Positions 12,383-26,500 of a DNA stretch of 64,000 bases are shown piece by piece (within the stretch, counting starts at the first letter, position 1; the number at the start of each line of letters is the position of its first letter). The DNA comes from Solidesulfovibrio aerotolerans. Its GTDB lineage: Bacteria; Desulfobacterota; Desulfovibrionia; Desulfovibrionales; Desulfovibrionaceae. The notes under the pieces were generated by a model. It made no database searches, was not told the DNA's origin, and worked only from the letters and a program-made list of their open reading frames with translations. The translations under genes and the position numbers were made by a program. The stretch lies in contig NZ_WVUD01000008.1 of assembly GCF_009856865.1 (NCBI RefSeq), forward strand, positions 67,499-131,498, in the 5' to 3' direction.

Positions 12383-13696
12383 CTACAGCCGCCAGTAGCG
12401 GTAGCCGGCGGTTTCGGCGGCGGTGCGCTCGAACACGCCCTTGACGTCGATAAGTATTGGCTCGACCGAAGGGCGAAACCAGGTGGCGATCTCGTCCAAA
12501 GTCAGCGCCGTAAAGGCGGCGTGGTTGACGGCGATGATAAGCGCGTCCAGCTCGCGCAGCTCCTCGCAGGGAACCAGCGTCAGGCCGTATTCCTCGCGGG
12601 CTTCCTCGGGCGAAGCCATGGGATCGTGGACCAGCACATGCATGCGGAAATCGCAAAGCTCGCGCACCATATCCACAACCTTGGTGTTGCGCAGATCCGG
12701 GACGTTTTCCTTGAAGGTCAGGCCCAGGACGCCGATGCGGGCGCAGCTCGCCCGGCACTCCGAGCGAATGAGCATCTTGATGGTCACTTCGGCCACATGC
12801 TTGGCCATGGAGTCGTTGATGCGACGCCCGGCCGGGATGATCTGCGGATGCAGATTGAGGCTTTGGGCCTGATAGAGCAGATAGTACGGATCGACGCCGA
12901 TGCAGTGGCCGCCGACCAGACCCGGGCGAAAAGGCAGGAAGTTCCATTTCGTCTCGGCGGCGCGCAGCACGTCCACGGTGTCGATGTCCAGCTTGTCGCA
13001 GATCATCGACAATTCGTTCATAAGCGCGATGTTGATGTCGCGCTGGGTGTTTTCAATGACCTTGGCCGCTTCGGCCACCTTGATCGAGGCTGCCTTGTGG
13101 ATGCCGGCCGTGACCACCGCGCCGTAAAGATCGGCCAAAAGGTCCGTCACTTCCGGGGTCTGGCCGGCCACGATCTTGACCACGGTGGCCAGGGTGTGGA
13201 CCTTGTCGCCGGGATTGATGCGCTCCGGGGAATAGCCCACAAAAAAGTCCTGGCCGGCTACGAGGTTTGAGCCGTTTTCGAGCAGCGGCAGACAGACCTC
13301 TTCGGTCAGACCCGGGTAGACCGTGGACTCATAAACGACGATGGAGCCGGGGGTGATCCGGCCGGCCAGCAGGCGCGAGGCACCGACCAGGGGGCCGAGG
13401 TCCGGTGCCCGGTGGGCGTTGATCGGCGTCGGCACGGCCACAATAAATATCTTGCAGGCGGCCAGCTCGGCCGGATCGCAGGTATAGCGCAGGCTGGCGG
13501 CGGTCAGTTCCCCGGGTTCGACCTCAAGGGTGCTGTCGCGCCCGGCCCTGAGTTCTTCCACCCGGGCGGCCTTGACGTCAAAACCGACCACGTCAAAATG
13601 GCGGGCCAGGGCCACAGCCAGGGGCAGGCCGACATAGCCCAGGCCAATGACCGCCACAGCGGCCTTTCTCGCGCGGATGTCTTCAAAACTGATCAA
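12383..13696 (-). CDS. Nucleotide-sugar dehydrogenase (UDP-GlcNAc/ManNAc 6-dehydrogenase, TviB/WbpA/WecC-like)
   Basis: AAVAVIGLGYVGLPLAVALA Rossmann motif and catalytic GGHCIGVDPYYL. Proposed TTG start at 13696 with GGAG 9 nt upstream. The ORF-track start is also a TTG further upstream. Confidence 0.7.
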   Translation of the reverse strand: MISFEDIRARKAAVAVIGLGYVGLPLAVALARHFDVVGFDVKAARVEELRAGRDSTLEVEPGELTAASLRYTCDPAELAACKIFIVAVPTPINAHRAPDLGPLVGASRLLAGRITPGSIVVYESTVYPGLTEEVCLPLLENGSNLVAGQDFFVGYSPERINPGDKVHTLATVVKIVAGQTPEVTDLLADLYGAVVTAGIHKAASIKVAEAAKVIENTQRDINIALMNELSMICDKLDIDTVDVLRAAETKWNFLPFRPGLVGGHCIGVDPYYLLYQAQSLNLHPQIIPAGRRINDSMAKHVAEVTIKMLIRSECRASCARIGVLGLTFKENVPDLRNTKVVDMVRELCDFRMHVLVHDPMASPEEAREEYGLTLVPCEELRELDALIIAVNHAAFTALTLDEIATWFRPSVEPILIDVKGVFERTAAETAGYRYWRL

Positions 13697-13815
13697 TGGG
13701 TGTTCTCCTTCATTGGAAAAAAACGGAACAGATCCATGGTCGCGATAGCGCAAAGCGCGGCCCCCTGCAAGATAGGCGGCTTTACATGTCGCGGCCGAAA
13801 TCGTACTCTTGAGGG

Positions 13816-14022
13816 ATGGAATTTAACTGGAAACTGTTCCTGACGGCCCTGGGGCTGGCCTTTATTCTGGAAGGGCTGCCGTATTTTCTGGCGGCCGAGA
13901 AGATGCCCACAGTGCTCAAAGCCCTGTCCGAGCGCAAACCCGGCGAACTGCGGGCCCTGGGCTTCACAGCCATCCTGTCCGGTCTGGCCCTGCTCTTTTT
14001 CCTACGCGCCTCCGGCGGCTAG
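13816..14022 (+). CDS. Small membrane protein (DUF2065-like)
   Basis: 68 aa with two hydrophobic helices. The RBS context is poor, so this is a weak call. Confidence 0.4.
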   Translation: MEFNWKLFLTALGLAFILEGLPYFLAAEKMPTVLKALSERKPGELRALGFTAILSGLALLFFLRASGG

Positions 14023-14354
14023 CCCTTGCGAGAGAAGAAGAGAGAAGAGGCCTCCGGCGGCCGGGGGGATGATCCCCCCGGACCCCCCAGCGGAAGAAGT
14101 TTTTAAAGGGGCTTGGGGTTGGCTGGTCAGTTGGGCGGTTGTGGACCAGGATTGCCAAAATTTGAGCGTGGCAGGAATCCCTGTGGCTGCGGCTCGACCG
14201 ACAATCGCCTTTCCTGCTCCCGTCAACCGTCGCACAAACGTCCAATAACCCCTTAAAGACCTCTCCTATCAAGGGGGTCCGGGGGGGATTATCCCCCCCG
14301 GCCGCCGGAGGCATCTTCTGCCTTCCCTTCTCTCTCTAATCTCTTTTCTCTTTT
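14023..14354. mobile_element. MITE-like composite palindromic repeat element, copy A. Inverted terminal modules flank about 180 bp.
   Basis: Left arm 14041-14090 is AGAGAAGAGGCCTCCGGCGGCCGGGGGGATGATCCCCCCGGACCCCCC. Right arm 14273-14335 is its reverse complement, followed by a CT-rich tail. Each arm contains the perfect palindrome CCGGGGGGAT-G-ATCCCCCCGG. Related copies are found at about 26400-26500, 42044-42095 and 42690-43058. Confidence 0.6.
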
Positions 14355-15074
14355 CTACACCGCCTTGACCCCGGCGTGGAGGAAGACGATACCGCCGGCC
14401 ATGGCCCGGTAGCCCACGTCGGCAAAGCCGGCCTGGCGCATTTCCTCGGCCAGCGTCGCTTCGTCCGGGAACTCCCGGATCGTCTCGGCCAGGTAGCGGT
14501 AGGCTTCGTCGTCGCCGGAGACGAGCTTGCCGATTTTGGGCAGCACCCGGCGCAGATAGAAATTGTACAACCCGCCCCACATGCGCCGTTTGCCGGTGCC
14601 GAATTCCAGCACCAACAGCCGCCCGCCCGGCCGGATGACCCGGGCCAGTTCGGCCAGGGCCTGGGAACGCGGCCGGATGTTGCGGATGCCAAAGGCAATG
14701 GTGGCCCCGGCCACGGACGCATCGGCCAGGGGCAGCACGCGTCCGTCGGCCACGGTGGGAAAAATGCGCCGCCGGTCGGCCTCGCTTAATTTGCCAAGGC
14801 CGGCCAGGAGCATGGGGGCGCACACGTCGGCGGCCAGGATGCGGCGGCTGCAGCGGCGGGCCACGGCGATGGACACGTCGAGGGTTCCGGCGGCCAGATC
14901 GAGGATGGGGCCAAGGGGCAGGCCGGGGGCCAGCAGCGCCCGGACCATGGTCCGGCGCCAGGCGATGTCGAGGCCGGCTGAGAGCATGTGGTTGAGCAGA
15001 TCGTAGGAGCCGGCCACCCGGCCGAACATGCCGGCCACCCGGCGGTTGTCTCCGGGAACGGGCAGCTCAGCCAT
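14355..15074 (-). CDS. ubiE: Demethylmenaquinone/ubiquinone C-methyltransferase UbiE/MenG
   Basis: MFGRVAGSYDLLNHMLSAGLDIAWRR and the SAM-binding ILDLAAGTLDVS. The start at 15074 overlaps the upstream small ORF by the octamer ATGGCTGA. Confidence 0.85.
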   Translation of the reverse strand: MAELPVPGDNRRVAGMFGRVAGSYDLLNHMLSAGLDIAWRRTMVRALLAPGLPLGPILDLAAGTLDVSIAVARRCSRRILAADVCAPMLLAGLGKLSEADRRRIFPTVADGRVLPLADASVAGATIAFGIRNIRPRSQALAELARVIRPGGRLLVLEFGTGKRRMWGGLYNFYLRRVLPKIGKLVSGDDEAYRYLAETIREFPDEATLAEEMRQAGFADVGYRAMAGGIVFLHAGVKAV

Positions 15075-15270
15075 GGTCGTGTCCACCCTTGGCCGGGGCC
15101 GCGTCGGTTTGGCCGGGCGCATGTGGCGTGCGGCTTATGACCCGCAGCACTTCCTCATAGATAGGACCGAAATGCTCGGTGAAGTTGCCCGGCGAAATAC
15201 GGCCGGTCTCCACAAACTTGACCACGATTTCCTTGGTCACCTGCAAGGCCAGGTTTTCCCGCTTTTCCAT
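15067..15270 (-). CDS. Small hypothetical protein (67 aa), translationally coupled to ubiE
   Basis: MEKRENLALQVTKEIVVKFVETGRISPGNFTEHFGPIYEEVLRVI... AAAGGA RBS lies 9 nt upstream. Its stop overlaps the ubiE start (cat ggc tga / atg gct gag). Confidence 0.45.
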   Translation of the reverse strand: MEKRENLALQVTKEIVVKFVETGRISPGNFTEHFGPIYEEVLRVISRTPHAPGQTDAAPAKGGHDHG

Positions 15271-15683
15271 GCTGCTTGGTCCTTTATGGCCCTGACCGCG
15301 TTGCCGGGCAGGCGGTCTGGCGTCTCGGGGCAATCCGTCGGCTTTGTGAAAAAACCCGCCCGGTTGGGGAAATGGCCTTGGACCGTCCAAGGGCAAGGAC
15401 CGGGCGGGAAAAGGGAAAAACCAGGGGAGGCACTCCACCTTTTTGCGCAGGCCCTAGCACGGGCCGCCCGGCGCGTCGAGGCCCGCCAAACCGCCCGGGC
15501 CGGCAGGCAAGGCCCGGACGCGGCGGCACAAGAAAACGCTTGTGGCCGTGTGCTCATGACGCAAGCAGCCTTGGCCGTTGTGATCGACACCATATTTCCG
15601 TAAGGTCGGGGGAAATTCGAATCCCCGGTTTGTAAGCCCCATGGCCCCACACGCCACTGCGCCGGGAAGGGAGCTTTGTCGTC

Positions 15684-16730
15684 ATGTCCCATGTTCTGAC
15701 CCTGGCACCCGGAATGGCCGTCACCGGGCCGCCGGGCCTGTATGAAGTCCTGCTTGTGGCCGCCTTTGCCGCCCACGTGCTGCTGGTCAACGTGGCCCTG
15801 GGCTGCACGCTGATCGCCCTTTTTTCGCCCGGCACCGGCCGCGCCGTGGCCGGTGCCCTGGCCAAACGCCTGCCCATTGCCGTGGCCGTGGCTGTCAACC
15901 TGGCCATCCCGGTGTTGCTCTTTGCCTCGGTGCTCTACGGCCAATACCTTTACACCGCCGCCATCCTGTCGGCCGTGCCCTGGCTGTCGCTCTTTATGGT
16001 TGTCATGATCGCCTACGGCCTGCTCTACGTGTTCCAGCCCCGGGCGGCACGGCCCGGCGCGGGCTGGATTGCGGCCGGGGCAGGGGCGTTGCTCCTTCTC
16101 GCCAGCCTGACCCTGGTCAATGTCTCGCTGCTGGCGGTGCGCCCGGATCTCTGGCCCGGGGCTGCGGCCCAGGCCGGCGGCACGGCCCTGGCTGTGGGCG
16201 ACCCGACCTTTTTGCCCCGCTGGCTTCATTTCGTGACCGCCTCCCTGGCCGTTGGCGGACTGGCCCTGGCGCTTTTCTCTCAAAAAGCGGCCCGTAGCGA
16301 CGCTGCGGCCGCCGACCGGCTGCGGCTGGGGCTGCGCTGGTTTGGTGGGGCCACCCTGGCCCAGATTCCCGTGGGCCTGTGGTTTCTGCTGTCGCTGCCG
16401 CGCCCGATCATGGAGCGGTTTTTCGGCGGCCATCCCGTGACCACCCTGGCCTTTATGCTCGGGCTTGGGCTGGCGGCGGCAGCACTGTTAAACGCCTGGC
16501 GCGGCCGGGTCGGGCGGGCGGCCTTTTTTATTGTCGCCGCTGTTGGCGGCATGGCGGTTGTGCGCGAGCAGGTCCGGCAAGCCTATCTGGCCCCGCATTT
16601 CACCCTGGACGCGCTGCCGGTCGCCACCCAGATCGGTCCCATCGTCATGTTTCTGGCCTGTCTCGCTGCCACGGCCCTGGCCGCAATCTGGGCCATCAGC
16701 CTGTATCGCCGCGCCGGGCAAAGGGGTTAG
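15684..16730 (+). CDS. Cytochrome bd-superfamily subunit-I-like membrane protein (CydA-like, Q-loop absent)
   Basis: About nine TM helices. TM1 AAHVLLVNVALGCT resembles CydA MYHFLFVPLTLGM. WLHFVTASLAVGG resembles CydA FVHTVASGYVTG (H186 region). REQVRQAYLAPHFTLDALPVATQ resembles CydA EYGRQPWAIGEVLPTAVAN. No long periplasmic loop between helices 5 and 6. E. coli CydA comparisons are from memory. Confidence 0.55.
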   Translation: MSHVLTLAPGMAVTGPPGLYEVLLVAAFAAHVLLVNVALGCTLIALFSPGTGRAVAGALAKRLPIAVAVAVNLAIPVLLFASVLYGQYLYTAAILSAVPWLSLFMVVMIAYGLLYVFQPRAARPGAGWIAAGAGALLLLASLTLVNVSLLAVRPDLWPGAAAQAGGTALAVGDPTFLPRWLHFVTASLAVGGLALALFSQKAARSDAAAADRLRLGLRWFGGATLAQIPVGLWFLLSLPRPIMERFFGGHPVTTLAFMLGLGLAAAALLNAWRGRVGRAAFFIVAAVGGMAVVREQVRQAYLAPHFTLDALPVATQIGPIVMFLACLAATALAAIWAISLYRRAGQRG

Positions 16731-16733
16731 GGC

Positions 16734-19367
16734 ATGGAATTTCCTGTCTGGCAGCTGTCTACCTTTGGCGGTGGTTTCTGGATCATCCTCATTGCCGTGC
16801 TGCATGTGTTTGTGGCCCATTTCGCCGTGGGCGGGGGCCTGTTCCTGGTTTTGACCGAAGCCAAGGCCCGGCGTCTGGGTTCCAAGCCGCTGCTGGCCTA
16901 TCTGCATCGCCACACCCGGTTTTTCATGCTGTTGACCATGGTCTTTGGCGGCCTGTCCGGGGTCGGCATCTGGCTGACCATATCGTTGCTCTCGCCCCAG
17001 GCCACACTGTTTCTGGTGCGCACTTTCGCCTGGGGCTGGGCCACGGAGTGGACGTTTTTCGCTGGCGAGATCGCGGCCTTGCTTGTCTATTATTACGGCT
17101 TCGACCGCCTGGACGCCCGGCGGCATATGCTCGTGGGCTGGCTCTATTTCGCCTTTGCCTTTTTGTCGCTGTTCGTGGTCAACGGCATCGTCGGGTTCAT
17201 GCTCACCCCGGGGGAGTGGCCGGTGAGCCAGGATTTCTGGGACGGCCTGTTCAATCCGACCTTCTGGCCGGGCGTTGTGCTGCGAACGGTCCTGGGCTTG
17301 CTTCTGGCCGGGCTGTTCGGTTTTGCCACGGCTCTTGGCATACCGGACGAGGAGGCCCGGGAGACGATGCTGCGCACGTCCTGCCGCTGGGCCGTGGCCG
17401 CCGCGCCGCTCTTGCTGCTGTCGGGCTGGTGGTATGTGGGCGCGCTGCCGGAACCGGTGCGGGCCTTTTTCCTGCGTCGCGGCAGCGAAATAGCCGCTTA
17501 TCGGGCCGCCTGGCCGGCGTTGCTGCTGGCCGTGGCCGCCGGCTCCATGGCCCTGTCCCTGCGTTTGCCGCTGGGGCTTCGCCGGGTACTGGCCGGGCTG
17601 TTGCTGCTGGCCGGGCTGGGGCTGGTCGGGGCCTTTGAGACCATGCGCGAGGCCGCCCGCAAACCCTGGCTCATCCCGGGGCTTGTCTGGGCCACCGACA
17701 TCCGGCCCAGTCAGGCAGCGCCCTACGAAGCGCCGCTTTTGCCCCGGGCCGCCTGGGCAAAAATCAAGGAAATCACGCCGGAGAACCGGCTGGCCGCCGG
17801 GGCCGAGCTTTTCACCCTCCAGTGCCTGGGTTGCCACAGCGTTGGCGGGCCAGTCAAAGACATCCGCAACTATACCAGCCAGATCGGGGCCGAAGGGGTG
17901 GAGGCCTACCTCACCGGCCAGGGCAAGCTGTTCACCCAGATGCCGCCTTTCCTTGGTTCGCCGGATGAGCGGGCCGCCCTGGCCGCCTACGTGGCCCAGG
18001 GGATCAACGGCCGCTATGCGCCAAAGGCCAAGCCGGTGGAGGTCAATCCCGTCGAGGTGGCCATCCCGCCCTTTGATCTGGAAAACGCCAGCCATCTGCT
18101 CCTGGCTGTCGGGGAACTGGGTGTTGTGGCCATGGCCGGCTGCGACGGCTCGTTTTCCCTGGCCGCGCCCGGCAACGGGCTTAAGGCAGTGCTGGTCAAG
18201 CGCGACGTGTTGCCCGAAGTGGTCACCCAGGGGGCGACCGTGCGCTATGCCGCCCCGGACGGAGCCAAAAACCCGGCCGCGCATCTTCCTTTCTGGAAAT
18301 ACGCCAAGACGTTGGTGGGCAAGACCCTGGCCGGGAACACCTCGGTCACGGGGCTGACGCCCGACGGCATCATGACGCCCGCCGGCAAGGTCTTTACCGC
18401 CGCCGGCATCCCGGTTTCGCCCTACGCCGACGACGGCACGGTCAACCCCTATCCGGTCTTTACCGTCACTGCTGCCGACGCGGCCGGGGCACCCCTGGCC
18501 GCAACCAAGGCCGTGGCGGCCGTGTCCACGGAAATGGGCTGCAAAACCTGCCATGGCGGCTCATGGGGCGAGGCTGAGGCAACTGGCGTGGCCAAGCCCA
18601 CGGCCGAGGCGATTTTGGCCGTGCATGATAAGCGAAACGGCACCAAACTGGCCCAGACCGCGGCTCTGGGCGAACCCGTGGCCTGCTTTGGCTGCCATAC
18701 CGATGCCGGTCCCAACGCCGCCGGGCTGCCCGGCCGGCCGGAGCTGCTCACCCTCTCGGCCGCGGTCCATGGCTTTCACGCCTCGTACATGACCGGCCAG
18801 GGGGCCGAGGCCTGCAACCGCTGCCATCCAACCGCGCCAAACGGCGTGACCCAGGCCCAGCGCGACAACCACGCCGCGGCCGGGATCGGTTGTCCGCGCT
18901 GCCATGGCTTCATGGAAGACCACGCCCTCTCACTTTTGGCCCACGAAAAGGCCGCCGGCAAGGCCGCTGCCGTGCGCCTTATGACGCCCCTGGCCCCGCG
19001 CAGCGTGGCCACGGTTGCCGCTGTCCATCCCCGGGCGGCCTGGACCCAGTTGCCCGACTGTCTGACCTGCCACAAGGACTTTGCCCGGCCGGCCAAGGAT
19101 GCCAGCGCCTTTAACACCTGGACCAAGGACGCGGCCGGCCTTTATCGCAATCGCACCGAGGCCACGGGCAATATTCCCTGCGCCGCCTGCCACGGCAGTC
19201 CCCATGCCACCTTTGTGGCGGTCAACGACTACGGCCTGAATGTCAATAATCTTGCCCCCATGCAGTACATGGGCGCGCCCGGGGTCATTGCCTCGGGCAA
19301 ACGCTGTGACGTGTGCCACACTGTGGAGATGGACGGGGATTCCCACCATCCCAATATGGTGAAATAG
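16734..19367 (+). CDS. CydA-like membrane domain fused to a periplasmic octaheme c-type cytochrome
   Basis: N-terminal 330 aa: LHVFVAHFAVGGGLFLVLTEA, GFDRLDARRHMLVGWL...VVNGIVGFMLTP (compare GWDRLGKVQHMCVTWL...VANGWMQNP) and ETMREAARKPWLIPG (compare EYGRQPWAIGE). The H186 equivalent is Arg (VLRTVLG). The C-terminus has eight CxxCH motifs: CLGCH, CKTCH, CFGCH, CNRCH, CPRCH, CLTCH, CAACH, CDVCH. The first lies in a class-I monoheme fold with Met (FTQMPPF). Confidence 0.6.
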   Translation: MEFPVWQLSTFGGGFWIILIAVLHVFVAHFAVGGGLFLVLTEAKARRLGSKPLLAYLHRHTRFFMLLTMVFGGLSGVGIWLTISLLSPQATLFLVRTFAWGWATEWTFFAGEIAALLVYYYGFDRLDARRHMLVGWLYFAFAFLSLFVVNGIVGFMLTPGEWPVSQDFWDGLFNPTFWPGVVLRTVLGLLLAGLFGFATALGIPDEEARETMLRTSCRWAVAAAPLLLLSGWWYVGALPEPVRAFFLRRGSEIAAYRAAWPALLLAVAAGSMALSLRLPLGLRRVLAGLLLLAGLGLVGAFETMREAARKPWLIPGLVWATDIRPSQAAPYEAPLLPRAAWAKIKEITPENRLAAGAELFTLQCLGCHSVGGPVKDIRNYTSQIGAEGVEAYLTGQGKLFTQMPPFLGSPDERAALAAYVAQGINGRYAPKAKPVEVNPVEVAIPPFDLENASHLLLAVGELGVVAMAGCDGSFSLAAPGNGLKAVLVKRDVLPEVVTQGATVRYAAPDGAKNPAAHLPFWKYAKTLVGKTLAGNTSVTGLTPDGIMTPAGKVFTAAGIPVSPYADDGTVNPYPVFTVTAADAAGAPLAATKAVAAVSTEMGCKTCHGGSWGEAEATGVAKPTAEAILAVHDKRNGTKLAQTAALGEPVACFGCHTDAGPNAAGLPGRPELLTLSAAVHGFHASYMTGQGAEACNRCHPTAPNGVTQAQRDNHAAAGIGCPRCHGFMEDHALSLLAHEKAAGKAAAVRLMTPLAPRSVATVAAVHPRAAWTQLPDCLTCHKDFARPAKDASAFNTWTKDAAGLYRNRTEATGNIPCAACHGSPHATFVAVNDYGLNVNNLAPMQYMGAPGVIASGKRCDVCHTVEMDGDSHHPNMVK

Positions 19368-19397
19368 GGTGGCGTTGCCAGCGAGGGAGGAGTGGGC

Positions 19398-19733
19398 ATG
19401 AAGACGTTTCTTGTGCTGCTGGCGGCGCTGCTTGCGCCGCTACCAGCCTTTGCAGCCGGGGGGATCACCATGACGCCGGAAATGCGTCAAACCTTGCAGG
19501 CCAAGATGCACCAGGAGTGTCTGGCCAAGGAAGGGGATTTTGCCCGCCAGGGCTATACCAAGGCCCAGACAGCAGCCATATGCAAATGCTCCACCCAGCA
19601 GACGGCGGCGTTGTTTAACTCCCAGACCGTCAGCTATATCCTGACGCACGGGGCCATGCCGGCGGATATGCAGCGCAAGGTGTCCTCGGCCACAGCCGGG
19701 TGCATCAAGTCCAGCACCGGCGTTCGGAAATAG
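19398..19733 (+). CDS. Small secreted Cys-containing protein, last gene of the CydA-like/cytochrome operon
   Basis: Signal peptide MKTFLVLLAALLAPLPAFAAGG. GGAGGA RBS lies 6 nt upstream. Four Cys residues. No family recognised. Confidence 0.5.
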   Translation: MKTFLVLLAALLAPLPAFAAGGITMTPEMRQTLQAKMHQECLAKEGDFARQGYTKAQTAAICKCSTQQTAALFNSQTVSYILTHGAMPADMQRKVSSATAGCIKSSTGVRK

Positions 19734-19785
19734 CGGGCTGTGGCGATGTCCTCGCCACACGCCGTCTTGCGCGGCGCACAATGCA

Positions 19786-19822
19786 AAACGCCCGCCCCGG
19801 AGTTTCCGGGGCGGGCGTTTTC
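19786..19822. terminator. Bidirectional rho-independent terminator
   Basis: CGCCCGCCCCGGA-GTTT-CCGGGGCGGGCG followed by TTTTC. It lies between convergent genes ending at 19733 and 19845. Confidence 0.6.
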
Positions 19823-19844
19823 AGGTCAGCGGACCGGGCCGCAG

Positions 19845-20972
19845 TTAGATGCGCACCAACTCGTATTCGGGCCGCCCCAGGCCCACGGCCGCGCCGTGGA
19901 CAAAGGTCACATCCCCGCGCGTCCACTGCCACAAGGCCGCGAATTTGTCCTCGCCGGTGCCCAGGCCGTGTTCGAGCTTGCACTCGGGACAGGCCGCCTG
20001 GGCGTTGACCAGATCAAGACAGGCCTTGTCCAGCGCCACCGGGTCGGTGGAAGCCAGAAAGCCGATGTCCGGCACAATGGGCGCGTCGGACCAGGGCACG
20101 CAGTCGCAGTCCGGCGTCACGTTGACCAAAAAGTTTACATAGCCCACCCGGCCCTTCTTGCCGGTGACCGCCCCCAGGGCGTATTCCACCAGGCGCTCCA
20201 TAAACGGCACGATCTCGGTGTGCCAGTTGATGCTCATGGCTTTTTTGCGGCACACCGTCAGACACTCGCCGCAGCCGATGCAGGTCGCCTTGTCAATGAC
20301 GGCCTTCTTGCCGTCCATGGTAGCCGCCCCAACCGGACACACCTTCACGCACTCCTGGCAGCCGATGCACTTTTTGGCGTCCACCACAAAGCGCACGCAG
20401 TGCTGCTCCTGCTTGCCCGCCCGGGGGGCGCAGCCCATGGCCAGATTTTTGACCGCCCCGCCAAAGCCAGCCAGTTCGTGGCCTTTGAAATGCGACAGCA
20501 CCAGCAGGGAATCGGCCCGCACGATGTCGCCGGCAATTTTGACGGACTGGAAATGCTTGCCGGCAACAGGCACCTCCAACACGTTGGTGCTGTCCAGGCC
20601 GTCGGCGATAATGACCGGCGCGCCAAGGACGGCATAGTCAAAGCCGTGCTCCACGGCCGTGACCATGTGGTCCACGGCGTTGTGCCGGCTGCCGGAATAG
20701 AGGGTGTTGGTGTCGGTGACAAAGGCCCGGCCGCCGCAGGCTTTGATGCGCTCCACCATGGCCCGGACGTAGGTGGGGCTTATATGGGTGTCGCAGCCGC
20801 GTTCGCCGAAATGGACCTTGACCCCGGTCAGGTCGCCTTTTTTGACGACATCGCCAAAGCCGGCGGCCTCAAAGAGTTTTTTAAGCTTGGCCGTGCGGTT
20901 GCGATTGGGCGTGCGGGCTCGCAAGTCGGCGAAATAGACCTTGGCCGGTTCATGATTTGTGTCTTGGGTCAT
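19845..20972 (-). CDS. DUF362-domain iron-sulfur protein with 2x[4Fe-4S] ferredoxin insert
   Basis: CIGCQECVKVCP and CIGCGECLTVC ferredoxin motifs inside a DUF362 scaffold (VHFGERGCDTHISPTYVRAMV). Confidence 0.75.
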   Translation of the reverse strand: MTQDTNHEPAKVYFADLRARTPNRNRTAKLKKLFEAAGFGDVVKKGDLTGVKVHFGERGCDTHISPTYVRAMVERIKACGGRAFVTDTNTLYSGSRHNAVDHMVTAVEHGFDYAVLGAPVIIADGLDSTNVLEVPVAGKHFQSVKIAGDIVRADSLLVLSHFKGHELAGFGGAVKNLAMGCAPRAGKQEQHCVRFVVDAKKCIGCQECVKVCPVGAATMDGKKAVIDKATCIGCGECLTVCRKKAMSINWHTEIVPFMERLVEYALGAVTGKKGRVGYVNFLVNVTPDCDCVPWSDAPIVPDIGFLASTDPVALDKACLDLVNAQAACPECKLEHGLGTGEDKFAALWQWTRGDVTFVHGAAVGLGRPEYELVRI

Positions 20973-23434
20973 GGGGCGCTTCCTTTTTTGGCATCGCCGT
21001 CGCAGCCGTCGGGCTGGCGGCGGGTCTGTTTTTCCAAGGCGTCGAGACGGTCGCTGATGGCGGCCAGCAGGCGGGTGGTCTCGGCCGTGTGCTCGCGGGC
21101 GAGCTGTTCCAGGGCCGGGGCCGTGCGCAGATGCAGGTCGGTCTGGGGAAAGGCGATTTCGACGCCGGCTTCGCGAAAGAGCCGGTCAATGGCTCCGCGC
21201 ACCGTGGACAGGGCCGTCACCGCGCCGGATACGTCGGCCAGCCAGACGCGCAGCTTGAAATCCAGGGTGCTGGCCCCGAAATCCCAGTGCAGCACGGCCG
21301 GCGGCGGGGTGGCCAACACGTCGGGGCACTCTTTGGCCGCCGCCAGGAGCAGTTCGCGCACCTTGGCCGTGTCCGAGCCATAGGCCACGCCCACGGCGAT
21401 GTCGCGGCGAACGCTGGGGTCTTTGTGGCTCCAGTTGATGATCTTGCCGGACACCAGCTCGGAGTTGGGCACAAACACCGTGGCGTTTTCGTTGGTGAGC
21501 ACCTCGGTGTTGCGGATGTTGACTTCCTTGACCACCCCCTGCCCGTCGCCGAGCTGGATGGTGTCCCCGGCCTGGACCGAGCGGCCAAAGAGCAAAATCA
21601 GGCCGCTGACGAAATTATTGACCGTGGTCTGCAAACCAAAGCCGATGCCGACCGACAGACCGCCGGCCACCACCGCCACGCTGGTCAGGGACACGCCCAG
21701 CACCGACATGGCAAAGACGACGTAGAGCCCCCACCACAGGTAGGTGTTGATGGTCAAAAGGGTGGTCTTGGCCCCGCGTTCCACGCTGCGGCGTCGGCCG
21801 GCCATTTCGGCGATAAAGGCCGCCGACAGGGCAATAAAGGCCCGGGCCAGATAGTAGCCGAGCAGAAGCAGTGCGAGCTTTTGCAGGCTGATGCCCACGG
21901 ACTCCACCCGGGTTTCCGTGGTCAGCACTTCCAGGAAGACGTTTTCGCCGCCAAACTGGTTTGAAAGCAGCCACAAAAAAAGGAACAGGCAGGCCAGAAA
22001 GAAAAACGGGAACCCGGCCCCTGCCAGGACGCCCAGGAAAAGCGGCAAACGGCCATGGCGGCGCTCGATTTCGCGGCGGCCGAAATAGCGGGTGATACGT
22101 GCGGCGAATCGCAGGGACAGGGCCACGTAGAAAAGGCCCGAGGCGAACAGGATGGCTGTTTGCGGCAGCCCGAACAGCGACAGTCCGGCCAGGGGCGGCA
22201 GGGCAAAGGCCAGGATGCCGGTGATGGCCCGGTCCAGGCGCTGATCCGGGGGCGTTGCCTTGCGCCGCTTCCAAAAGCCCAGGGCGGCCAGAGCCAAAAC
22301 CACGGCCATGAGCGGGCCGCTCAGGGTGTCGGGAAAACGGCCGGATTCGAGCATAAGGCCCAGGGCGAACAGTCGCCAGGTGGGCCATAAGACGGCCGGC
22401 CGTTGGCCGTCGCGCGACGCATCGCGGCTTAAACGCGAGAGATGGACCAGGGCGGCGGCATAGAGAATTTCGCCAATGGAAATGAACAGGGTGAACAGGA
22501 AAAACGGCGCGAACTGGGCCAGGGTCGTAAAAAACGCTCCGGCAGCGGTGCAGACCGCCAGCTTGGCCACAAGCCCGAGTGTCAGCCTGGAAACGCCGCG
22601 TCGGGCGGCCACGCGCCGGCCAATCAGAAACAGGGCGGCGACCAGGGCGGCGGCCAGGGCGCCCATGCCCAGGCCCTCCAGGAGCATGGTCTGCAAGGCC
22701 GCCGTGTCCAGCAGTTCCGAACACAGCCCGGCCCAGAGTTTCCAGTCCTCAATGTCTTCATGGAGATACCGGAAAAAGGAAGCGGCGAAAATCGAGGGGT
22801 TGGAGTCCTTGTAATACCGCTTCCAGGCCGGGGCCATGGCCTCTTGCAGTTCGTCGGCAGCGGTGTCGAGCTGCTCGGCCAGATTGCGCAGGGGGGTGGC
22901 TTCCAGCGCCAGACTGTCGCGCAGGGCGGTGATTTCGGTGCTGAGACTGTCAATGGAGCGCTGGCTGGGGGCCAGGGCCTGGCGGAAGCGTTCGGGCACT
23001 TCCTGGCTGGTGATGGCGCGGAGCTTGTCGCGGTAGGATTCGAGCAGGGCGACGTTTTGTTCCAGGGCCGTCCAGGCCTGCTGCGGCCGCTGGGCCAGAT
23101 GGGCCACATCCTGGCGCAGCCGGTCCATGCCGGCCATGACAGTGCGGATTTCCCAGGGATCAGAGGCCGTGGCCTGCCATAAGGCGAGTCTGGCCCGGTC
23201 GCGAAACAACCGCTCCAGTTCGATGTTCTGCTCGGCCTCTTCGACGGCGCGACGGGCCTTGAAGGCCTCCAGCCGACTGCGGCTGATCGCATCCTGCTTT
23301 TGCAGGGTCTCCAGCACCAGGCCCCAGGCCTGGTCGTCATCGACAACCAGACGGGAAATGGCGGCAACCGATACGGTCGCGGCCAGCAGGACCAGCAGCA
23401 GGCAGGCAGGGAGGAGGGCGCGGCGCGGCGTCAT
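20969..23434 (-). CDS. MscK/KefA-like mechanosensitive channel (long periplasmic coiled-coil, 11 TM, MscS domain)
   Basis: The C-terminal MscS core is GIGFGLQTTVNNFVSGLILLFGRSVQAGDTIQLGDGQGVVKEVNIRNTEV. Start at MTPRRALLPACLLLV (23434) has a weak RBS. There is an ATGA overlap with the DUF362 gene. Confidence 0.7.
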   Translation of the reverse strand: MTPRRALLPACLLLVLLAATVSVAAISRLVVDDDQAWGLVLETLQKQDAISRSRLEAFKARRAVEEAEQNIELERLFRDRARLALWQATASDPWEIRTVMAGMDRLRQDVAHLAQRPQQAWTALEQNVALLESYRDKLRAITSQEVPERFRQALAPSQRSIDSLSTEITALRDSLALEATPLRNLAEQLDTAADELQEAMAPAWKRYYKDSNPSIFAASFFRYLHEDIEDWKLWAGLCSELLDTAALQTMLLEGLGMGALAAALVAALFLIGRRVAARRGVSRLTLGLVAKLAVCTAAGAFFTTLAQFAPFFLFTLFISIGEILYAAALVHLSRLSRDASRDGQRPAVLWPTWRLFALGLMLESGRFPDTLSGPLMAVVLALAALGFWKRRKATPPDQRLDRAITGILAFALPPLAGLSLFGLPQTAILFASGLFYVALSLRFAARITRYFGRREIERRHGRLPLFLGVLAGAGFPFFFLACLFLFLWLLSNQFGGENVFLEVLTTETRVESVGISLQKLALLLLGYYLARAFIALSAAFIAEMAGRRRSVERGAKTTLLTINTYLWWGLYVVFAMSVLGVSLTSVAVVAGGLSVGIGFGLQTTVNNFVSGLILLFGRSVQAGDTIQLGDGQGVVKEVNIRNTEVLTNENATVFVPNSELVSGKIINWSHKDPSVRRDIAVGVAYGSDTAKVRELLLAAAKECPDVLATPPPAVLHWDFGASTLDFKLRVWLADVSGAVTALSTVRGAIDRLFREAGVEIAFPQTDLHLRTAPALEQLAREHTAETTRLLAAISDRLDALEKQTRRQPDGCDGDAKKGSAP

Positions 23435-23481
23435 AGCTGCCCTGATACGGCCTTGGCCAGCCCCTGTCCATGGGGCGGCGG

Positions 23482-24243
23482 TCAGTCGCGCCGCTTTTTG
23501 TCCAGACCGCCGCCCACCACCCATTTGATCTGGCGGCATACGCCCATGAGCAGATTGAATTCGTGGCGCCTAAGCCCCACCCGGTCGATGAAGCGGCGCA
23601 CCGGCAGCATCCAGTAGTCCGGGTTGTCGGCCTTTAAAAAATCAATGGCCAACAGCGACTCCCGCAGCGCTCCAAACAGCGATTCCCGCTCGGCATGGGT
23701 GGCGGCGCGCGAAGGCAAGGGCACATCCTCTTCCTCGGCCAGCCCCTGGGAGGTCTTAAAGACCTCGTAGCAGACCAGCAGCACGGCCTGGGCCAGATTG
23801 AGCGAGGTGGCCTCGTCGGCTGTGGGGATGTTGACCAGCCGGCCGCAGAGCTGCGTCTCCTGGTTGGACAACCCGGCGTCCTCCGGCCCAAAGACCACGG
23901 CCACGCCATCGCCTGCGGCCAGGGTCCGCCAGACGCTGCCGGCCGCCTGCCCGGGGGTGATCACACCCTTGCGCCAGCCGCCCAGCCGCGCCGTTGTGCC
24001 GTAGACATCCTGGGCTCCGGCCACGGCCTCGGCCAGGGTGGCGACGATTTCCAGCCGGTCGAGTAGCAACCCGCCCTTGCTGGTGGCCATGGGCCGTGCC
24101 CGGTCCAGGTCAAAGGCCGGCGGATCGACCAGCACCAGCCGGGTTACACCCATGTTGGCGCAGGCCCGGGCCGCCGCGCCGACGTTTTCCGAGAATTTGG
24201 GTCTGAAAAGGACGATAGTGAGATTATTGAGCATAGTTTCCAT
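23482..24243 (-). CDS. SpoU-family RNA 2'-O-methyltransferase (TrmJ/TrmH-like)
   Basis: LTIVLFRPKFSENVGAAARACANMG...VAVVFGPEDAGLSNQE...LNLAQAVLLVCYE are SPOUT motifs. Start at METMLNN. The start is uncertain. Confidence 0.65.
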   Translation of the reverse strand: METMLNNLTIVLFRPKFSENVGAAARACANMGVTRLVLVDPPAFDLDRARPMATSKGGLLLDRLEIVATLAEAVAGAQDVYGTTARLGGWRKGVITPGQAAGSVWRTLAAGDGVAVVFGPEDAGLSNQETQLCGRLVNIPTADEATSLNLAQAVLLVCYEVFKTSQGLAEEEDVPLPSRAATHAERESLFGALRESLLAIDFLKADNPDYWMLPVRRFIDRVGLRRHEFNLLMGVCRQIKWVVGGGLDKKRRD

Positions 24244-24492
24244 GGAATAGAGCAGGAGGAATGTCGGGAGGGAGGCCCCGTCTTTCCCGCAACGTTTACA
24301 GACGCGGCTTGTTTTATCAAGCGAAAGTGAAAATGGGGGAGTGGTGACTGCTCCCTTGCTCGGCAGCGATGCACAGCGCATCAAACATGGCAGGCAGATA
24401 TGAGGAAAGCGCCTTGACCGCTGCGGCTATTCGTGGACCAGTAAGTATAAGGAGCCCGCTGTAGAGAGAGAACCTCAGCCAGGAGAAAGGAA

Positions 24493-25131
24493 ATGCCCTT
24501 TGAATCAGAATCGTTACTTGATGATATGAAATTGAATAATAGACTCATCCTCGCTGAGAGCGAATTGGAGCACTCTATAATCTATGCTCTTCTTAATAAG
24601 GCACAGGAAATTGATAATGCTGCATTGCTCAGAGAGATTAATAAGTATACTCCAGTTCAAAAATTTGAACGAGATTACACAATGCTACAGGGTCCAATTT
24701 ATGTGCCAATTTCTCCAGCGAATGCTGATATTGACAAAAATATTCAACGCGCCCGTGCCAGTTGGAGCCCGTCATGGTTTTTGGAGAAACTCGCTCCAGG
24801 CGGAGAGATGGATTATAAAGCTGGCCATGGTAATATAAAATATGAAGATTTTGGAAATTTTAATTATGGTGCTGTCGCACTTGCTTTTGGTTTGTCGGAG
24901 AAAGTAGCATTGCGAGGAGCAGGCTTGGTACAAACGATTGTTGATATTTCAAGAATAAAGAACAATAAAGGTTCTGACGAAGCAAAACAATATTTTAAGG
25001 ATCATAAATTTGATTTTCTTGGCCGTGAATCTTACGGTGACCAGCGGAAAGATCAGGAAATGATCAAACAGGGGTTCCGTTATTACAAAGAGGTCTATTT
25101 AAAAAAAACAGTCAAGCAAAACAGCAATTGA
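24493..25131 (+). CDS. Hypothetical protein in AT-rich islet (no Cys, no signal peptide; possible toxin-like or defense protein)
   Basis: 212 aa. GGAGAAAGG RBS. Base composition is markedly AT-richer than the flanks. Motifs KAGHGNIKYEDFGNFNYGAVALAFG and YGDQRKDQEMIKQGFRYY were not recognised. Confidence 0.5.
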   Translation: MPFESESLLDDMKLNNRLILAESELEHSIIYALLNKAQEIDNAALLREINKYTPVQKFERDYTMLQGPIYVPISPANADIDKNIQRARASWSPSWFLEKLAPGGEMDYKAGHGNIKYEDFGNFNYGAVALAFGLSEKVALRGAGLVQTIVDISRIKNNKGSDEAKQYFKDHKFDFLGRESYGDQRKDQEMIKQGFRYYKEVYLKKTVKQNSN

Positions 25132-25420
25132 AGATTTTGAGAATATGCAAGAGATACAGAAAAGGATTGGAGCAGAAGAGTGGGGTAGTTTTTTTCAGAA
25201 TGGAAAATATAAAAGTACTACGAGAAAAATAGTCTGTCGCATTGTTAAATAGTGTAATGGCACTCTTTCGTGAGAGGAGTTGGTATTCACCGCGCCGCAA
25301 GTTTTTCCCTGGTCAGTCTTCCGTAAGTCAATGCGCTGCACGCCATCCAACTGCGGTCAGGAATAGAGCTGATAGTTAGCATTACGTTGCGACAACGCTT
25401 AGTCATTTAAAATTGTTAGT

Positions 25421-26170
25421 CTATTTGTTTTGTGTTGGACGGACATAATCCCCCGCCTCTTCGTCTGGGGGGTCGTTCATGATGATAGGCAAATAGCCAA
25501 GCTCTGGATATATAATATACCAGCAGCGTTCAAGCTTGTGGGGAAAACGCGCTCTTTCAATTCTTATCCAGCGCGAAATGTTGTCGTCAGGAACGTAACA
25601 AAGTCCGATATCGAGTGTGAGAATATTCCATCCTAACGAAAAAATTGCACTTGTTTGGTTATCAATTGTTGTGTAAATGGTTAAACCGTTTTGTGTGGCG
25701 AGATGAGTATGGGGTTGTGGCAAGTGTATGACTGCTGATGGCGTGTTTTTGTTGCCAATTCGCCCATTTTTAATCATCTTGATGATTTCTATGCGTTCTT
25801 GTTTGAATAATTCGAAGTATAGTTTGTCGTCAATACTGCCAGAAGGGCCTGGGGGGTAGTATACTATGAAATAGAGATTGAAAAGAAGTGGGAGGACGGC
25901 CCAAAGAGGCGTTGTCCAGACATAGCGGAAAAAGACATATGTATTGCGGATGAGCAAGAAAAATTCATATAGTAAAATCCAGTTGGGCAGGGGGCGGCTG
26001 ATATTAAACGGCATGCGGCAGCACAGGATGTAGCCGAAATACAGGAATGGCGTAACAAGCGCCATGAATGTGAGCATCGCCCGCAAGGCTCGCTGGCAGC
26101 GTCGTTTCGCCAGCCAACGACGGCGCGCAGGGCAGACGGGCATTTGCGGAACCTGCGTCTGGATGATCAT
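25421..26170 (-). CDS. Hypothetical membrane protein in AT-rich islet (2-3 TM plus about 150-aa soluble C-terminal domain)
   Basis: Convergent with the previous gene. The hydrophobic region is FLYFGYILCC...LWAVLPLLFNLYFIVYY. An alternative start is at MLTFMALV (26077). Neither start has a clear RBS. Confidence 0.45.
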   Translation of the reverse strand: MIIQTQVPQMPVCPARRRWLAKRRCQRALRAMLTFMALVTPFLYFGYILCCRMPFNISRPLPNWILLYEFFLLIRNTYVFFRYVWTTPLWAVLPLLFNLYFIVYYPPGPSGSIDDKLYFELFKQERIEIIKMIKNGRIGNKNTPSAVIHLPQPHTHLATQNGLTIYTTIDNQTSAIFSLGWNILTLDIGLCYVPDDNISRWIRIERARFPHKLERCWYIIYPELGYLPIIMNDPPDEEAGDYVRPTQNK

Positions 26171-26399
26171 GGCACCCGTTTATCGGTTTTTCAATGGATA
26201 CGCCAGACCAGCCCCGAGGCGCAGTGCGTCGGCGGGGTTTCGCCGCCAATCAATTTGCAGAACTTCTCCAATTGAGGGGGCGGGGGTGTCTCCACAGCCG
26301 CCGGGGCAATGGTGGTTCCCGTCAAGCTTGCCGTGCGGCATTGCCCACCCGACAAAAGTGTATTCTCCGCCCCACCCACCGTCGCGGCAACGCCGTCCC

Positions 26400-26500
26400 C
26401 CACGTAACCCCTTGCCTTCCAGGAGGGATTCCAAAGGGGCCACCCCTTTGGCCGCCGGAGGCCTCTTCTGTCTTTTCTTCGCGTCCGTTTTTCCGCTCTC
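26400..26500. repeat. Degenerate solo arm of the palindromic repeat family seen at 14023-14354
   Basis: GGCCGCCGGAGGCCTCTTCTGTCTTTTCTTC matches the copy A right end GGCCGCCGGAGGCATCTTCTGCCTTCCCTTC. The hairpin CCAAAGGGGCCACCCCTTTGG lies upstream. Confidence 0.45.

Follow-up and report, generated by a model that had tools for sequence, protein, structure and literature searches.

An OR-C1-type gene pair of the cytochrome bd superfamily with a fused octaheme cytochrome c in Solidesulfovibrio aerotolerans

Introduction

The cytochrome bd superfamily was divided by Murali, Gennis and Hemp in 2021 into the qOR, OR-C and OR-N families (bioRxiv 10.1101/2021.01.16.426971; later ISME J). The OR-C1a subunit is a CydA protein, typically of eight transmembrane (TM) helices, that lacks a quinol site and carries a C-terminal periplasmic heme c extension, and OR-C1b is its adjacent paralog. 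According to the same preprint, 'b' subunits generally lack E99 and E107, cytochrome c is the proposed electron donor of OR-C1, and up to eight hemes c occur in OR-C1 of the Desulfovibrionia. Here we report on two adjacent open reading frames, ORF1 and ORF2, and a small third one, ORF3, found in a stretch of 64,000 nucleotides (nt) of Solidesulfovibrio (Desulfovibrio) aerotolerans contig NZ_WVUD01000008.1, hereafter the window. An earlier note on the window had described them as an operon of two CydA-like paralogs without CydB, the second fused to an octaheme cytochrome c, and as an architecture without a characterised match. To judge from sequence and predicted structure, ORF1 and ORF2 are a member of OR-C1, as OR-C1b and OR-C1a, respectively, with nothing essential that sets them apart.

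Supplementary Table 6 of the preprint (bioRxiv 10.1101/2021.01.16.426971) lists H24, E105, E112, S145, H131, Y119, Y121, V77, W80 and F183 for the OR-C1a of D. senegalensis. Its Supplementary Table 7 contains dozens of Desulfovibrionia OR-C1a proteins with eight CxxCH motifs, the same genus included, such as those of D. magneticus RS-1 (DMR_35740), D. fructosovorans, Desulfovibrio sp. DV, TomC and FW1012B, D. alaskensis G20 (Dde_0291) and D. gigas, together with heme c-free OR-C1b 'hypothetical proteins' that bear adjacent gene numbers. The architecture is thus already catalogued and widespread, and is not a discovery. Our literature searches retrieved no later paper characterising any OR-C enzyme: 'OR-C1' led to the Murali preprint only, a 2026 cryo-EM paper on bd-I cites OR-C merely as a phylogenetic class, and nothing was found for the locus tags of octaheme homologs (Dde_0291, DMR_35740, DGI_4051, Daes_0497, Dbac_2631 and THEYE_A0176). 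The earlier statement that no biochemically characterised enzyme has this architecture therefore stands, but the novelty that it implied does not, as OR-C1a and OR-C1b had already been defined.

Results

ORF1 and ORF2 are members of the cytochrome bd superfamily

Residues 19-232 of ORF2 matched PF01654 (Cyt_bd_oxida_I) with 29.2 bits (gathering cutoff, 26.2), and a family profile built from 57 homologs matched CydA of Geobacillus (5doq_A, from structure 5DOQ; E 4e-5). The profile alignment paired H24, E105 and E112 of ORF2 with H21, E101 and E108 of the Geobacillus protein and with H19, E99 and E107 of E. coli CydA. We inventoried conserved residues in 83 full-length homologs from several phyla that share 38-82% identity (84 sequences with ORF2). 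H24, E105 and E112 were each present in 84/84 sequences, and Y119, S145, R184, E302, R305, E306, R309 and P311 were likewise 100% conserved; S145 corresponds to S140 of E. coli CydA. These results bear out the TM1 histidine and the two glutamates that had first been picked out by eye. When either family was compared with the single E. coli CydA or CydB sequence using hhalign, no match was significant, the best one aligning ORF2 118-159 with CydA 113-154 (E 0.039).

The AlphaFold model of ORF2 (pLDDT 89.2) has eight TM helices with a periplasmic N-terminus, a topology that places the heme c extension in the periplasm, and the bd-subunit fold, two four-helix bundles plus a further helix, was recovered. 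The loop between helices 6 and 7, where quinol oxidases carry the Q-loop, is only 13 residues long in both ORF1 and ORF2, in agreement with the reported absence of a Q-loop. The position of His186, a ligand of heme b558, is occupied by L183 in ORF2 and by Phe in most homologs. The invariant Arg is the adjacent R184, and the Arg previously assigned to this position was therefore one residue out of register. Furthermore, TM7 of ORF2 and its homologs has no conserved Met or His, hence no b558 ligand of the Met393 type. The ligand of the second active-site heme, Glu445 in E. coli, may be retained, since the motif R-E306-A-A-R-K-P-W of ORF2 resembles A-E445-Y-G-R-Q-P-W of E. coli and a second stretch of the profile alignment brings it to AE-VG-RQPW of Geobacillus, a weak stretch that is not significant alone.

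ORF1 had no match in Pfam or NCBIfam, so that the PF01654 search, which recovered ORF2, did not recover its partner directly. BLASTP of ORF1 against the N-terminal part of ORF2 was not significant either (E 0.009 over a 42-residue piece), and profile methods were therefore needed. Comparison of the two family profiles with hhalign gave 93% probability and E 2.7e-7, with ORF1 140-306 in register with ORF2 144-313. Moreover, a hidden Markov model of the ORF2 membrane domain matched one ORF1 ortholog directly, and one ORF1-family member had a sub-threshold match to PF01654. The ORF1 family profile had no meaningful match among sequences of the Protein Data Bank. ORF1 and ORF2 are thus paralogs, both in the cytochrome bd superfamily, and the helix-by-helix alignment of both to CydA given in the earlier note was essentially right.

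ORF1 stands in place of CydB and retains a distinct set of invariant residues

Searches for CydB gave nothing: PF02322 did not match any of ORF1-3, and the 64-kb window contained no sequence similar to E. coli CydB and no canonical cydA. ORF1 was modelled with high confidence (pLDDT 90.1), and the model and hydropathy agree on nine TM helices, of which the final one spans residues 317-343. Across 77 homologs (median identity, 32%), H31, H182, M290, R179, R294 and R298 were invariant. H31 is the His19 equivalent and aligns with H24 of ORF2, and H182, in the motif P-R-W-L-H-F, is the His186 equivalent, confirming that the b558 histidine is kept in ORF1. Both proton-channel glutamates are missing, as expected of a 'b' subunit. 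We rejected M290 as a homologue of Met393, as it sits in TM8 and not in TM7.

As the pseudo-symmetric partner of ORF2, ORF1 would occupy the CydB position. That H31, H182 and M290 are invariant suggests heme b binding by ORF1 itself, in contrast to CydB. This invariant His/His/Met/Arg set of the 'b' subunit is a detail beyond the published tables. The pair is indeed asymmetric, but not as a complete and a degenerate subunit with ORF2 as the degenerate one, since ORF2 keeps the catalytic di-heme and proton-channel residues and ORF1 the His ligands only.

ORF2 carries eight heme c motifs in its periplasmic part

About 530 residues of periplasmic cytochrome c are fused to the membrane domain of ORF2. 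They contain exactly eight CxxCH motifs within residues 364-862 (at 364, 603, 651, 694, 720, 776, 816 and 858), all after the eight TM helices; ORF1 and ORF3 have none. The first motif lies in a monoheme domain that scored 26.1 bits with Pfam Cytochrome_CBB3, slightly below the cutoff of 27, and whose family profile matched cytochrome c6 structures (E 3e-5) with M403 aligned to the axial Met of c6. M403 is present in 83/84 sequences, and sequence comparison thus identifies the first heme c as a class-I His/Met type, as had been proposed. It is followed by an all-beta domain with strands at 454-598 in the AlphaFold secondary structure, for which fold matches were weak and restricted to Ig/p53/macroglobulin-like sandwiches.

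The heptaheme region matched Pfam Cytochrome_C7 (41.4 bits), MtrC/MtrF domain II/IV (34.4 bits) and Cytochrome_C554. Besides those of the CxxCH motifs, eight His residues are conserved (H631, H679, H682, H713, H730, H824, H871 and H872), a number sufficient for bis-His ligation of all seven hemes of this domain to be predicted as possible. With one conserved Met and eight conserved His available as distal ligands, no heme c would have to keep a vacant coordination site, and the c domain would accordingly look like a wire and not like a catalytic site. Eight CxxCH motifs were found in 80 of the 83 homologs. The other three have nine, six and one, respectively, and at least the last two are truncated by contig ends (L075, residues 1-796; L078, residues 1-395). 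A search with ORF2 yielded 1,458 proteins; among the top 120, eight motifs are present in 118.

The conserved module consists of exactly two genes

We scanned one genome per species, and at least 576 genomes had a relative in the form of a full-length homolog. The best 80 loci, which we described by taxon, belong to Desulfobacterota, Bacteroidota, Ignavibacteriota, Calditrichia, Planctomycetota, Acidobacteriota and Thermodesulfobacteriota. The ORF1 family comprises 2,187 cluster representatives (50% identity clusters) at E <= 1e-3 and has no Pfam model. Of the 75 loci with sufficient upstream DNA, 71, from several phyla, have an ORF1-like gene directly before the match and in the same orientation (65 detected by script, plus six that abut the match start and had been skipped by a distance filter). 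No third gene was conserved around 83 related loci, the largest cluster of neighbours being generic sensor kinases (12 loci). Therefore, the conserved module consists of exactly ORF1 and ORF2.

Loci L001 (Desulfonema ishimotonii), L008, L031 and L058 encode a full-length octaheme OR-C1a without an ORF1-like gene in the flanking DNA (at most 5-6 kb to either side, and a shorter stretch on small contigs like that of L058); their partner may be encoded elsewhere or be dispensable. In 4 of the 83 related loci (e.g., L081 1071-2615, minus strand), the OR-C1 pair has a canonical cydA (and cydB) no more than 5 kb away.

ORF3 and the menaquinone genes fall outside this module. The small Cys-containing protein that had been noticed after ORF2 is indeed present and is probably secreted: ORF3 has four Cys and begins with a hydrophobic stretch ending in AFAAGG that, read by eye, looks like a signal peptide. 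However, it has no Pfam match, and its homologs number no more than 18, every one of them from a Solidesulfovibrio-like source; the 83 related loci contain none. ORF3 is co-directional but genus-specific. The menaquinone genes reported beside the operon were also found, as UbiE/MenG, an MqnA/D-type protein, a PNP_UDP_1-family protein and a polyprenyl synthetase lie upstream in the window; the PNP_UDP_1-family member (nucleoside phosphorylase superfamily) is plausibly a candidate for the futalosine hydrolase MqnB. UbiE adjoins the pair in only two of the 83 related loci, both of them close relatives with 82% identity, and other menaquinone genes do so in none, showing that this adjacency is local happenstance.

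Comparison with described families

The OR-C1 architecture is identical to that observed here: a CydA-like subunit of eight TM helices without a Q-loop, C-terminal periplasmic heme c and an adjacent gene for a CydA-derived partner. Furthermore, ORF2 and its homologs carry the signature residues of the D. senegalensis protein at identical numbers, with Leu (ORF2) or Phe at position 183. There are three minor differences. ORF1 has nine predicted TM helices and not the eight that Murali et al. state for OR-C1b; H31, H182 and M290 are invariant in ORF1, and the published tables give no conserved residues there for the 'b' subunit; the third concerns E306 and is weighed below.

Canonical CydAB (E. 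coli bd-I, 6RKO; Geobacillus, 5DOQ/5IR6) has in common with ORF1 and ORF2 a pseudo-symmetric two-subunit core, the heme ligand H19, the channel residues E99 and E107, S140 and perhaps E445. In contrast, ORF1 and ORF2 lack the Q-loop, the catalytic subunit has no b558 ligands and eight TM helices instead of nine, a second CydA paralog replaces CydB (PF02322), and the eight-heme periplasmic extension is an addition of ORF2. The donor would differ as well, quinol in CydAB and presumably cytochrome c here.

Archaeal CydAA' (qOR4a/qOR4b) of Caldivirga maquilingensis, for which Murali et al. showed O2 reduction, likewise uses a diverged CydA duplicate as subunit II that has the His19 equivalent and lacks the channel glutamates. 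Unlike ORF2, its CydA has a Q-loop with a quinol site and heme b558 and no heme c, and its CydA' has A190 in place of the His186 equivalent that is present in ORF1 as H182. The OR-N proteins of Nitrospirota and Chloroflexota also lack the Q-loop, occur as a/b paralog pairs and have an H186-equivalent His in their 'b' subunits, but their TM helices number 10-14, they carry no fused heme c, and their operons contain other electron-donor modules.

Organization of the locus

The coordinates of the genes and domains are given in Table 1; all three ORFs lie where they had been placed before. Three nt separate the stop codon of ORF1 from the ATG of ORF2, and ORF3 begins 24 nt after ORF2. Translation of ORF3 more probably starts at the ATG at 19398, which is preceded by the ribosome-binding site GGGAGGAG. 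Entries at NCBI that are 100% identical are named 'cytochrome C' for ORF2 and 'hypothetical protein GTA51_06935' for ORF1.

Table 1. Genes and predicted domains of the OR-C1 locus, in window positions
Feature	Position	Strand	Remarks
ORF1, OR-C1b-type CydA paralog in place of CydB	15684..16730	+	348 aa, 9 predicted TM helices, no heme c
ORF2, whole	16734-19367	+	877 aa
ORF2 residues 1-345, OR-C1a membrane domain, CydA-like	16734..17768	+	8 TM helices; predicted di-heme (b595/d-type) site and proton-channel residues; no Q-loop, no b558 ligand
ORF2 residues 346-425, predicted class-I monoheme cytochrome c domain (C364xxCH, axial M403)	17769..18008	+	periplasmic side, directly after TM8
ORF2 residues ~450-598, periplasmic all-beta (sandwich-like) domain	18081..18527	+	no heme motif
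ORF2 residues 599-877 and stop codon, heptaheme c domain	18528..19367	+	CxxCH at 603, 651, 694, 720, 776, 816, 858
ORF3, small, probably secreted, four Cys	19392..19733	+	113 aa; probably 111 aa from ATG at 19398

The unit is bordered upstream by a divergent small ORF and ubiE; on its downstream side lies a DUF362/ferredoxin gene in convergent orientation. The small ORF (123 aa; 15067-15438, minus strand), which lies between ubiE and ORF1, has no Pfam match and adjoins ubiE in the close relatives L004 and L078 too (E ~1e-39). The DUF362 protein (19845-20972, minus strand) has two 4Fe-4S motifs and is followed by a large MscS-type mechanosensitive channel (20969-23539, minus strand), also downstream of and convergent to the operon. 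Among the related loci searched, a DUF362 homolog was found near the OR-C1 pair in none and an MscS-type channel in one (L050).

An Rfam scan of positions 13000-26500 found nothing, the promoter scan returned no promoter, every terminator-like match lay inside coding sequence, and a search for inverted repeats upstream gave nothing convincing. Positions 24001-26000 have a GC content of 0.45, compared with ~0.64 elsewhere, and contain ORFs at 24493-25131 (plus strand) and 25421-26170 (minus strand). The one of 212 aa matched PF15607 ('Bacterial toxin 44', Ntox44; E 5e-15), and the neighbouring one of 249 aa had no Pfam match; this stretch has the look of a small toxin gained by horizontal transfer, perhaps together with an immunity gene.

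Discussion

We consider the most probable function of the OR-C1 pair, at slightly better than an even chance, to be that of a periplasmic cytochrome c-to-O2 reductase of the bd superfamily. Building on the homology, the fold, the conservation of ligand and channel residues, the topology, the heme count and the two-gene module, we propose cofactors, a donor, a direction of electron flow and a substrate. Hydrogenases and formate dehydrogenases of the periplasm would feed the periplasmic c-type cytochromes, which in their reduced state would donate electrons to the bis-His heptaheme domain of ORF2. The heme wire would pass them to the His/Met monoheme c directly after TM8, which would take over from the lost His/Met heme b558 as immediate donor to a b595/d-type di-heme site in helices 1-4 and 8 (H24, E306). 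There, O2 would be reduced to water with cytoplasmic protons delivered through the conserved E105/E112/S145 channel. The outcome would be the removal of O2 and a modest proton-motive force from charge separation.

Bis-His multiheme c domains usually have low potentials and His/Met hemes higher ones, so that the layout of ORF2 would run downhill towards the membrane site. Heme ligation and topology as predicted from sequence thus point to a periplasmic cytochrome c as donor, in agreement with the published proposal.

Several points weigh against this reading. That O2 is the substrate is extrapolated from the quinol bd oxidases and from archaeal CydAA', because no OR-C enzyme has been purified or assayed. 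Most hosts are strict anaerobes and possess canonical bd oxidases already. The invariant His and Met residues of ORF1 have no role in the proposed scheme. Furthermore, Supplementary Table 6 of Murali et al. (bioRxiv 10.1101/2021.01.16.426971) marks E445 as absent in OR-C1a, at odds with the alignment of the invariant E306 to this residue in the weak stretch described above.

The earlier note had favoured a menaquinol-linked oxidoreductase. In such an enzyme, menaquinol would be oxidised at the membrane part, possibly in ORF1 near a heme ligated by H182, and electrons would then either reach the di-heme site or leave by way of the heme c wire for acceptors in the periplasm or outside the cell. 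The His186 equivalent of ORF1 speaks for it, as canonical His186 ligates heme b558 beside the quinol site, and so do the invariant H31 and M290 and three Arg of ORF1, which suggest heme b binding, and the UbiE/MenG and futalosine-pathway genes just upstream. However, these gene neighbours and ORF3 are confined to the genus and leave the menaquinol link unsupported, both subunits lack the Q-loop, and heme ligation and topology favour a cytochrome c donor. In addition, given typical potentials, outward flow from menaquinol to bis-His hemes c would probably be uphill, and the strictly conserved, cytoplasm-facing Glu channel of ORF2 would serve no purpose in a simple quinol:cytochrome c relay. We therefore hold a menaquinol-linked function to be unlikely. 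A variant that keeps O2 reduction is rather doubtful too: ORF1 may be more than an inert stand-in for CydB, and heme b binding by it would place cofactors in both halves of the dimer and could open a second electron path beside the heme c wire, for instance from the menaquinone pool, making the complex a three-way hub of quinol, cytochrome c and O2.

The di-heme site could also reduce a substrate other than O2, such as NO, nitrite, H2O2 or a sulfur compound, for detoxification or respiration. The hosts are anaerobes or microaerophiles of sulfidic, nitrogen-oxide-exposed habitats (Desulfobacterota, Bacteroidales, Ignavibacteriota and Calditrichia), canonical bd oxidases have been reported to handle NO, peroxide and sulfide stress, and a store of eight hemes would suit multi-electron reductions. 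We nevertheless judge such a substrate improbable: the conserved set of ligands and proton-channel residues is that of O2 reduction in every characterised family member, the conserved neighbours include no nitrogen- or sulfur-metabolism gene, and nothing points directly to another substrate. That the membrane proteins are instead NrfD/PsrC-type quinone-interacting subunits on a multiheme cytochrome, as in the NrfBCD, Qrc and ACIII modules, is essentially excluded. PF01654 scored above its cutoff and no NrfD family was matched, the best structural and sequence matches lie outside the NrfD family, and the equivalents of the bd-specific H19, E99 and E107 are invariant.

The window thus presents no new architecture. 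It offers a clean example of the large and phylogenetically broad OR-C1 family in an aerotolerant sulfate reducer, with specific residues in both subunits that can be mutated. If the OR-C1 pair is an oxygen reductase that depends on cytochrome c and needs no copper, it would constitute a third route of O2 reduction from the periplasmic cytochrome c pool, beside the aa3-type and cbb3-type heme-copper oxidases. A hub of quinol, cytochrome c and O2, if true, would be undescribed for any bd-type enzyme. O2 reduction by the OR-C1 pair, if true, would help to account for the way in which 'strict' anaerobes, among them sulfate reducers, Bacteroidales and Ignavibacteria, deal with O2.

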